Origin: a virus
Lineage: Duplodnaviria > Heunggongvirae > Uroviricota > Caudoviricetes
DNA: 5,320 nucleotides
IMG/VR virus record: IMGVR_UViG_2690316345_000006
Location: 1 to 5,320 of that record
Direction: 5' to 3' (one strand)
The notes under the pieces: generated by a model
What the model was told of the DNA's origin: nothing
The model's input: the letters and a program-made list of their open reading frames with translations, nothing else
Database searches by the model: none
In this document: positions 546-1,379 of the stretch, piece after piece
Layout of the letters: each line of letters begins with the position of its first letter
Position numbering within the stretch: position 1 is the first letter of the stretch
Position numbers and translations under genes: made by a program

Positions 546-1379
546 GTGACTGAATTAACCAAAGAGAAATTAATCGAAGAAGCCAAATTAAAAATAGCGA
601 TTGCGAAATGCTACCCCAATTCAGGGATGGCACGGGTAGAGGGCGAGTTATTCAAAATTGCACTGGCATCGCTGGAAGCAGAACCAATAGGTGCTTTCCA
701 CATTGTAGAACAGCAAGTTGACGGAACAAGTTACTATATCAAGGATGGGGAATGGCCTATTGATACTGGGATTATTGAAGTCTACGCCGCCTCACCGATG
801 ACGGTAGTGCTGAACGATGTATCTGGACCTCTTGCTCTTGCTTACAAAGAGCTTACACCTGCGATTATGCGCAACCATATCGCTGTATTCGAACGATACG
901 GAATAACCCCAAACGATAGCATTACTACAATTCATGCGCTTCGAATTGCGCTGGATGGCATAGAGCGGAGCGACGCCATGCTTCATGGACGTCAGCCATG
1001 CCATCAAATTACCGCCTCAATGGCAAAAGCTATTGCGCTTAAACTTGGTGCCGAACTGAATAACGAAGAAGCAGAGATTTTCGCGGATGGGTATAACACC
1101 GCCATGCTTCATGCCGAAAACTTTCGGGAAAATAAGAATTCGTCAACCAATAATTTTCGGATAACCTCGGAAACGTCAACCAACTCTCCGGCAATCCCTG
1201 ATGAGGTGTTGTCCGCAATCCTGAAGGTCGCCAGGGTTCGTGCAGATTTCGATGCTTCTGAAGGTGACAGGCGAGGTATCGGTGGTTGTCTGGATGAGGC
1301 CGAGCAAGAACTTATCGTTACCATTAACAAATACGCCAGTCAGATCGCAGTAGAAGCGATACAGGGGGCGCACCAATGA
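546..1379 (+). CDS. Hypothetical protein, 277 aa, function unknown
   Basis: Longest ORF in the left half (GTG start at 546, as in the supplied track); protein-like composition with a charged N-terminus and a low-complexity Asn/Ser/Thr linker around residues 190-215; no family recognised. Confidence 0.7.
   Translation: MTELTKEKLIEEAKLKIAIAKCYPNSGMARVEGELFKIALASLEAEPIGAFHIVEQQVDGTSYYIKDGEWPIDTGIIEVYAASPMTVVLNDVSGPLALAYKELTPAIMRNHIAVFERYGITPNDSITTIHALRIALDGIERSDAMLHGRQPCHQITASMAKAIALKLGAELNNEEAEIFADGYNTAMLHAENFRENKNSSTNNFRITSETSTNSPAIPDEVLSAILKVARVRADFDASEGDRRGIGGCLDEAEQELIVTINKYASQIAVEAIQGAHQ

Follow-up and report, generated by a model that had tools for sequence, protein, structure and literature searches.

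A mosaic protein of the Eaa/'DUF551' family without a DUF551 domain, encoded upstream of hok/sok in a lambdoid prophage

Introduction

The Ea22 protein is pro-lysogenic and tetrameric, and its variant V2 ends in a DUF551 domain (PMC10834534, PMC7093339). A second described DUF551 protein is YfdS of the cryptic prophage CPS-53, and overexpression of yfdQRST inhibits the initiation of replication (PMC4776307). A passing mention places an eaa homologue in Gifsy-1, within the variable region for replication and immunity (PMC9879122). A literature search on DUF551, Eaa, PF04448 and YfdS gave no functional study beyond those of Ea22 V2 and YfdS and the mention of eaa in Gifsy-1. Eaa-type 'DUF551' proteins are also encoded by P22-like and other lambdoid prophages and by P1-like phage-plasmids, for example P0016 (327 aa), P0027 (433 aa) and P0104 (283 aa, 'Eaa protein').

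The protein described here is encoded by a 277-codon open reading frame (ORF) in a stretch of 5,320 nucleotides from a caudoviral record (IMG/VR IMGVR_UViG_2690316345_000006), the whole of which is referred to below as the window. Like Ea22 of phage lambda and the Ea22 variants of Stx phages, the members of its family are early, non-essential, mosaic accessory proteins, and an Ead_Ea22 domain is present in five of 148 family representatives. The window protein itself does not belong to Ead/Ea22 (PF13935), there being no Pfam hit and the predicted helices forming short hairpins with no long central coiled coil; its best BLASTP match to lambda Ea22 (E 0.049 over 43 aa) was not significant. YfdS and the window protein are both among the prophage proteins labelled DUF551 in databases, but the feature that YfdS shares with them is the DUF551 domain, which the window protein lacks. 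The reading that we tentatively favour, at a probability of about 0.45, is that the protein would be a chain of small binding cassettes, soluble, acidic and non-enzymatic, that lacks DUF551 and would act as a dispensable modulator encoded in the early operon.

Reading frame, start codon and leader

The ORF (Table 1) is the longest found in the window, in agreement with the initial annotation, which had called it the largest gene. The runner-up is a mechanical ORF of 224 aa at 3214-3888, within which the real Q-like gene accounts for 184 aa, and the DUF1367 gene is third with 199-203 aa. The 277-aa ORF is real: DNA identical to it or nearly so occurs in 25 complete E. coli genomes and relatives of the protein number in the thousands, far beyond what a chance ORF would show. 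A competing gene on the minus strand was ruled out, the ORFs on that strand being at most 73 aa long and the plus-strand frame being the conserved one.

The relatives start with MTELTKE.. (MT(E/T)(L/I)TKE..) at the same position, with ATG replacing the GTG of the window and with the same leader, caggaggccgcccgaaagggcggtaatgaaaa, upstream. A start at 546 is credible because both the N-terminal residues and the leader are shared. The leader also precedes relatives in three other loci (L002, L007 and L010), and in the first of these the start context is likewise as in the window. Folding of the RNA from 505 to 560 gave -18.3 kcal/mol (z = -3.9 against shuffled sequences), the stable hairpin of the leader sitting between AGGAGG and the start codon. 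A mini-ORF of four codons (ATG at 539, encoding MKSD and a stop) overlaps the GTG start. Such an arrangement could bring the Shine-Dalgarno sequence near the start codon or could regulate the initiation of translation. The predicted protein has a net charge of about -15.

Family membership and cassette architecture

It had initially been reported that the protein matched no lambdoid core function and was unassigned. The first of these statements was confirmed. No family was found in Pfam (E ≤ 0.1, including PF04448 and PF13935) or NCBIfam, and PDB sequence searches with the protein and with the DUF551 domain of a relative returned only noise (E ≥ 0.29). The core and nin families (replication, recombination, NinB, NinG, Rus and Q) gave no Pfam or NCBIfam match for the 277-aa protein, although the same scans do match its neighbours (DUF1367/NinB-like, YbcO and DUF1133/Q-like). 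A clear match to a core phage family, which the initial annotation had named as the finding that would speak against it, was thus obtained with neither Pfam nor NCBIfam. The second statement did not hold: by its profile and word-indexed matches, the protein belongs to the Eaa/'DUF551' mosaic family, a large group comprising PHROG 60 and its sub-families.

Among PHROG profiles, phrog_60 matched the whole length of the protein (E 8e-18), phrog_5117 and phrog_660 (about 1e-15) as well as phrog_3323 matched aa 1-93, phrog_6847 matched aa 66-152 and phrog_14306 matched aa 184-273 (E-values of the last two in Table 1); all of these families are annotated as being of unknown function. The word-indexed protein search gave 6589 homologues, many of which are named DUF551 or Eaa by their sources ('Eaa protein' in some cases), including a 99 % identical protein with the NCBI name 'DUF551 domain-containing protein', and an exhaustive search of representatives gave 781 cluster representatives at E ≤ 0.001. 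Membership in Eaa/PHROG 60 is indicated both by the N-terminal cassette with its IALASLEAEP signature, the columns of which are invariant or nearly so in the multiple alignment (A1), and by the colinear cassettes C, linker and E, which are common to other members. The sequence and its family are therefore already catalogued, and the function is the missing piece.

As read from alignment A1 and from maps of the matched segments, the protein is a chain of six colinear, exchangeable cassettes, A, B, C, D, L (the linker) and E (Table 1). Cassette A, which is matched by phrog_5117, phrog_660 and phrog_3323, has three residues that are invariant in the alignment (A41, A45 and P47). The alternative type of cassette B in the alignment, B', reads VAYIFKHPAGKLFW...VIPVYAAAP. 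Cassette D appears as gaps in most rows, with a depth of 14-27 among the representatives. The mean frequency of the top residue among representatives was 0.60 for A, 0.81 for C, 0.79 for the linker and 0.90 for E; the linker is thus conserved like the folded cassettes, yet it is predicted to be disordered (AlphaFold, pLDDT < 50).

Nearly all subsets of these cassettes that preserve their order are represented among the relatives. In a module census of 147 representatives, 23 had E alone, 9 had C alone, 15 had AB and 11 had BC, B alone also occurring in many proteins, and no out-of-order arrangement was seen among 267 proteins. The boundaries are marked by short conserved motifs (IALASLEAEP, VYAAxP and AMLQ/AMLH), and the shuffling of cassettes at such boundaries is taken to an extreme in the Eaa/'DUF551' family. 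The three Eaa-type relatives named above have cassettes A, B or B', C, linker L and E in the same order as the window protein; Eaa-type relatives are 44-91 % identical to it over 80-98 % of the query.

AlphaFold gave no usable model from 55 close homologues (mean pLDDT 45.5); from 148 diverse representatives it reached a mean pLDDT of 67.6 and a pTM of 0.32. Only two helical hairpins were confident in the latter model, namely aa 1-47 (pLDDT 86-96, with helices at aa 6-22 and 27-44) and aa 219-275 (pLDDT 70-91), whereas aa 48-190, including cassette B, were of low confidence. When the model, about 40 % of which is confident, was searched with Foldseek, neither PDB nor BFVD yielded a match at E ≤ 0.001. 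Rows for Tad1 (PDB, E > 5), calmodulin and ribosomal proteins were rejected as helical-hairpin noise. Structure prediction, one of the checks proposed with the initial annotation, has thus provided two confident hairpins and empty fold searches. The N-terminus is charged, as had been described, but the coiled coil considered possible there is predicted to be a short hairpin shaped like a helix-turn-helix, with no long coiled coil. Similarly, the Asn/Ser/Thr stretch NKNSSTNNFRITSETSTNS was confirmed, lying within aa 191-218, while the two domains it had been taken to separate are replaced by about six exchangeable cassettes.

Table 1 Features of the window and, in the last row, of related database records (positions are those of the window unless a record is named)
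Feature	Position	Strand	Description
IS1 end	1-125		Reverse complement; 100 % identical to IS1A/IS1B copies, >4900 E. coli genomes
WP_000063625.1 homologue (70-aa hypothetical)	305-510		Frameshifted; net 7-bp deletion near 347-358 relative to strain 155
Conserved leader	516-545	+	AGGAGG at 516-521; GC-rich hairpin GGCCGCCC-GAAA-GGGCGG at about 519-537; then TAATGAAAA
CDS, 277-aa Eaa-family protein	546-1379	+	GTG start, TGA stop; pI 4.9
Cassette A	546-686 (aa 1-47)	+	N-terminal helical hairpin, IALASLEAEP at its end
Cassette B	687-797 (aa 48-84)	+	IGAFHIVEQQVDG...IIEVYAASP; the family has a second, alternative B type
Cassette C	798-986 (aa 85-147)	+	Helical, YKELTPAIMRNHIAVFERYGITPNDS..ALRIALDGIERSDAML; phrog_6847, E 6e-35
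Cassette D	987-1115 (aa 148-190)	+	Rarest cassette; most relatives without it
Linker L	1116-1199 (aa 191-218)	+	Conserved, Asn/Ser/Thr-rich, NFRENKNSSTNNFR..ETSTN.P
Cassette E	1200-1361 (aa 219-272)	+	Helical hairpin, GDRRGIG.CLDEAEQELIVTINKYASQ core; phrog_14306, E 1e-36
Tail QGAHQ and stop	1362-1379	+	Remnant of DUF551-ending gene; junction at about 1361/1362
25-aa hydrophobic ORF	1376-1453	+	MSRPDAFAGVAIAIAFLVYVICRWG; unannotated; ATG overlaps the stop of the 277-aa ORF as ATGA
34-aa hydrophobic ORF	1489-1593		MSDDISLVMEGALAVIAVVGVYCLVVFLMDRLGN; hypothetical WP_001278459.1 in relatives
sok RNA	1669-1839		Rfam, 106 bits
hokD	1837-1992		Pfam Hok/Gef, E 4e-23
DUF1367/NinB-like gene	2448-3047
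YbcO gene	3047-3337
Q-like DUF1133 gene	3334-3888
PGAP pseudogene fragments	L001 9547-9834; L009 6547-6834; L010 5547-5804		Full 277-codon frame open

Loss of the DUF551 domain

Most relatives end in a DUF551 domain (PF04448; 42 of the 148 representatives and most of the close matches). In the Eaa-type relatives this ending (..PDGWISCSERMP...HWMPLPEPPQE) often follows further cassettes, whereas the window protein continues for only six codons past cassette E and does not belong to PF04448, the C-terminal domain of which has the pattern ..PDGW..C..RMP...HWMPLPEPP. DNA homology to the long relatives (L002 and L010) extends to position 1361 (..GAAGCGATA), with an identity to L002 of about 90 % across 1100-1361. 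From 1362 onwards (CAGGGGGCGCACCAATGA..) the window aligns with the last codons, the stop and the downstream region of the DUF551-ending gene of strain PEC240 (L006; ..CAGGAGGTGCGCCAATGA..), the tail QGAHQ corresponding to QEVRQ, in each case followed by the stop codon. As the last six codons align with the end of a DUF551 gene, the entire DUF551 domain was removed in frame; the original stop and its ATGA overlap with the downstream small ORF have been retained. The short repeat CAGAACCG (A/P-E-P) is found beside the junction in both parental sequences and may have been the site of recombination. The event, an in-frame deletion or recombination, attached the closing codons of the terminal DUF551 domain to cassette E at its end, and without this domain the protein may be a weakened or altered form, or is possibly inert.

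Of 5426 complete E. coli genomes, 367 contain the junction, either in the window type (24 genomes) or in the O157:H7 type (343 genomes). It sits behind at least three unrelated N-terminal architectures, in proteins of 277, 187 and 129 aa. The 187-aa protein of O157:H7 (WP_000137954.1, L007 2977-3540) and the 129-aa protein P0131 (L011) have the linker, cassette E, junction and tail of the window protein, with the common ending YASQIAVEA(I/T)QG..Q before the stop. Their genes are about 96 % identical to the window in DNA sequence across the junction and are followed by the same small ORFs, in L007 also by hokD. Their N-terminal cassettes, in contrast, are entirely different, and B, C and D are missing.

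The database label 'DUF551 domain-containing' is wrong for the window allele, from which DUF551 has been lost; as there is no PF04448 match, the label must have been inherited from relatives. Annotation pipelines also disagree on whether the 277-aa ORF is a gene or a pseudogene. In three records RefSeq PGAP annotates no more than the final 86-96 codons and calls them a pseudogene fragment ('DUF551 ... missing N-terminus'; Table 1). The GTG start, together with the mosaic nature of the reference proteins, is the probable source of this inconsistency. That DUF551 was lost in frame and that the annotation is misleading are clarifications of minor weight.

The missing domain raises the alternative that the gene is an inert remnant, derived by deletion from a longer Eaa/DUF551 gene and now without the effector domain, with its frame still open in a decaying prophage. 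The junction would then be a deletion scar, and the GTG start where relatives have ATG, the PGAP pseudogene calls, the IS1 copy about 420 bp upstream and the frameshifted 70-aa neighbour would all be consistent with decay, as would a dN/dS of about 0.9-1.4 between copies of the E-tail region. We consider this alternative, the main rival of the favoured reading, rather unlikely, and equally so its corollary that the frame persists because too little time has elapsed for it to be broken. The deletion is exactly in frame, with the original stop and overlap kept, the ending has been kept open in all 367 genomes and recombined onto three different N-termini, and the 187-aa form of O157:H7 is annotated as intact in every listed record. 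Cassette A, moreover, has a dN/dS of 0.22-0.31. For linker and E the values were 0.5-1.8, which, with counts of 2-25 changes, are indistinguishable from 1, and the high values are not specific to the truncated form, a dN/dS of 1.8 having been obtained between two relatives that bear DUF551. Because the ratios are equally high between such relatives and the counts are small, dN/dS cannot separate relaxed constraint from diversifying selection in this region.

Genomic context and proposed function

The related genomes have the gene in a Rac/Qin-like lambdoid prophage, after a replication module with ydaV or P-type genes, DUF1627 and DUF977, and both this module and the Q-like gene are oriented in the same direction as the gene. 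Between 1 and 2062 the plus strand showed no terminator-like site, the first being located at 2063-2080, after hok, and the five promoter-like sites found, compared with 4.1 expected from shuffled sequence, do not include a convincing promoter of its own. Taken together, the co-directional position and the lack of a terminator before hok and of a convincing promoter suggest that the gene is read as part of the early-right transcript.

Among 5426 complete E. coli genomes, just 25 have the full 277-aa gene, while 1041 have pieces of it. Identical DNA is found in complete genomes of STEC (O145:H28 and others), where the product is labelled 'DUF551 domain-containing protein'. In the prophages that are closest by the rest of the window, this position is occupied by other small genes and by one for a distinct, DUF551-only protein. 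The gene was accordingly variable when its presence and absence were compared across genomes and prophages, a comparison that had been suggested together with the initial proposal of a candidate accessory gene, and accessory status is supported.

Many Eaa-type relatives are found in the P22-type early-left 'ea' region, adjoining abc2 and Ead/Ea22, or in the accessory region of P1-like phage-plasmids, adjoining Ead/Ea22-like genes, whereas the window gene follows replication genes. DNA 98 % identical to that of the window is present on the 100-kb P1-like plasmid pAUSMDU00014361_02 (L010), in which a block of three genes (119-aa gene, 70-aa gene and Eaa-type gene, 4348-5816) lies beside an Ead/Ea22-like gene. 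Family members of 420-433 aa are common on contigs of 90-97 kb with humD-type (Peptidase_S24), phd and doc genes (L003-L005). The occurrence of the same block and of relatives on P1-like elements indicates that the cassettes move between lambdoid prophages and phage-plasmids.

In the reading favoured here, induction or infection would lead to transcription of the gene as part of the early-right operon, and the product would be a soluble, acidic, mostly helical protein with the cassettes arranged like beads on a string and without a catalytic motif. Most likely, the cassettes would individually bind host or phage proteins, and the whole would act as a dispensable modulator of early development. 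The domains to which relatives are fused, which besides Ead/Ea22 are Lar and a dATP/dGTP pyrophosphohydrolase (each in 2 of the 148 representatives), place the family among early accessory functions and define no single one. Against this reading, no homology ties any cassette to an activity, and the low confidence of the model over aa 48-190, the empty fold searches, the GTG start, the PGAP fragment calls, the neighbours damaged by IS1 and by a frameshift and the dN/dS in linker and E, which on small counts is indistinguishable from 1, are caveats to it.

A more specific proposal is counter-defence, either anti-restriction or anti-immune, in which the cassettes would be decoys or inhibitors of host defence, shuffled at the conserved linkers to track hosts. 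It would suit an acidic protein encoded in the early operon, whose relatives are found beside abc2 (P22-like) and near a Tad2-like gene (P1-like plasmids) and are in rare cases fused to Lar or to the pyrophosphohydrolase domain, and the combinatorial shuffling and high nonsynonymous fraction would fit an arms race. These fusions are, however, each limited to two representatives, and the neighbourhood is generic for phage accessory regions. No sequence or fold similarity to a known anti-defence protein (Ocr/ArdA-type, Lar, Tad1/Tad2 and the like) was observed either: the model gave no PDB or BFVD match at E ≤ 0.001, and the Tad1 rows in PDB were at E > 5. With about 40 % of the model confident, a fold relationship of the middle cassettes may nevertheless have escaped this search. 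A counter-defence role is regarded as improbable. Slightly more improbable still is a version of it in which each cassette would be a specificity module in its own right, within a combinatorial protein for counter-defence or host takeover, the form lacking DUF551 being a functional variant selected in STEC prophages and not a relic. Its further element, that the disordered but unusually conserved linker and the boundary motifs (ASLEAEP, VYAAxP, AMLQ and AEP/PEP) would serve as recombination joints between such modules, is just as speculative.

By itself the 277-aa protein is of little consequence, being a catalogued hypothetical protein from a very common prophage family. If any cassette were shown to bind a host protein, or a defence protein, a function would be provided at once for thousands of prophage genes of STEC, Salmonella and Klebsiella.

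Neighbouring genes

The window contains, in this order, the IS1 end, two small-gene remnants, the 277-aa gene, the small hydrophobic ORFs, hok/sok, a 57-aa ORF, the DUF1367 (NinB-like), YbcO and Q-like genes, tRNA genes and TerB (Table 1). The gene had initially been placed between nin-type genes and the hok locus, but the DUF1367/NinB-like, YbcO and Q-like genes are all downstream of hok. It had also been described as lying next to two small toxic-peptide-like genes, and hokD/sok and the 34-aa hydrophobic ORF are indeed found downstream of it. The 34-aa ORF, which had no family match, is always located between the Eaa-type gene and hok/sok, whatever the gene upstream. The 25-aa ORF has a homologue of 27 aa in strain PEC240 (L006), with an in-frame insertion of 6 nt and the same ATGA overlap with the DUF551 gene; the shared overlap suggests that this ORF is real and encodes a translationally coupled small membrane protein.

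This neighbourhood underlies a further proposal, made in the initial annotation, that the protein together with the adjacent small toxic peptides would provide defence or superinfection exclusion expressed from the prophage. The gene does adjoin hok/sok and two small hydrophobic ORFs and is variably present among prophages. The block of hok/sok and small ORFs nevertheless follows unrelated genes in other prophages, so that the link between it and the 277-aa gene is positional only, the pairing is not conserved and a functional tie to hok/sok was rejected. The protein had no match in PADLOC-DB 2.0 (no family at E ≤ 1), and profile scans revealed no nuclease, NTPase, sensor or membrane domain. 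The promoter-like sites are not above chance, and family members are located in early lytic operons and not in the moron positions expressed in lysogens. Prophage-expressed defence or exclusion is accordingly very unlikely, and of the roles first suggested (exclusion, defence or anti-defence) none gained support, there being no PADLOC match, no enzymatic or membrane domain, no structural match and no conserved pairing with hok.

Upstream of the 277-aa gene, homology to related prophages begins at 126, so that IS1 interrupts a gene for a 119-aa zinc-ribbon-like protein (homologue of WP_000403779.1), the 3' end of which remains at about 126-254. The frameshift in the homologue of the 70-aa gene leaves an ORF of 35 aa (305-412) and an out-of-frame remainder. 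At the other end of the window, two prophage tRNA genes are found within 4028-4280, one being tRNA-Arg (TCT) and the other having the anticodon CAT, which was assigned to Met by ARAGORN and is annotated as tRNA-Ile in PEC240 and as tRNA-Met in strain 155. Downstream of the TerB/DUF3927 genes, Rfam identified the sRNA STnc100 (5050-5242, plus strand, 146 bits) and the anti-GcvB sRNA AgvB (5243-5304, minus strand, 96.5 bits).
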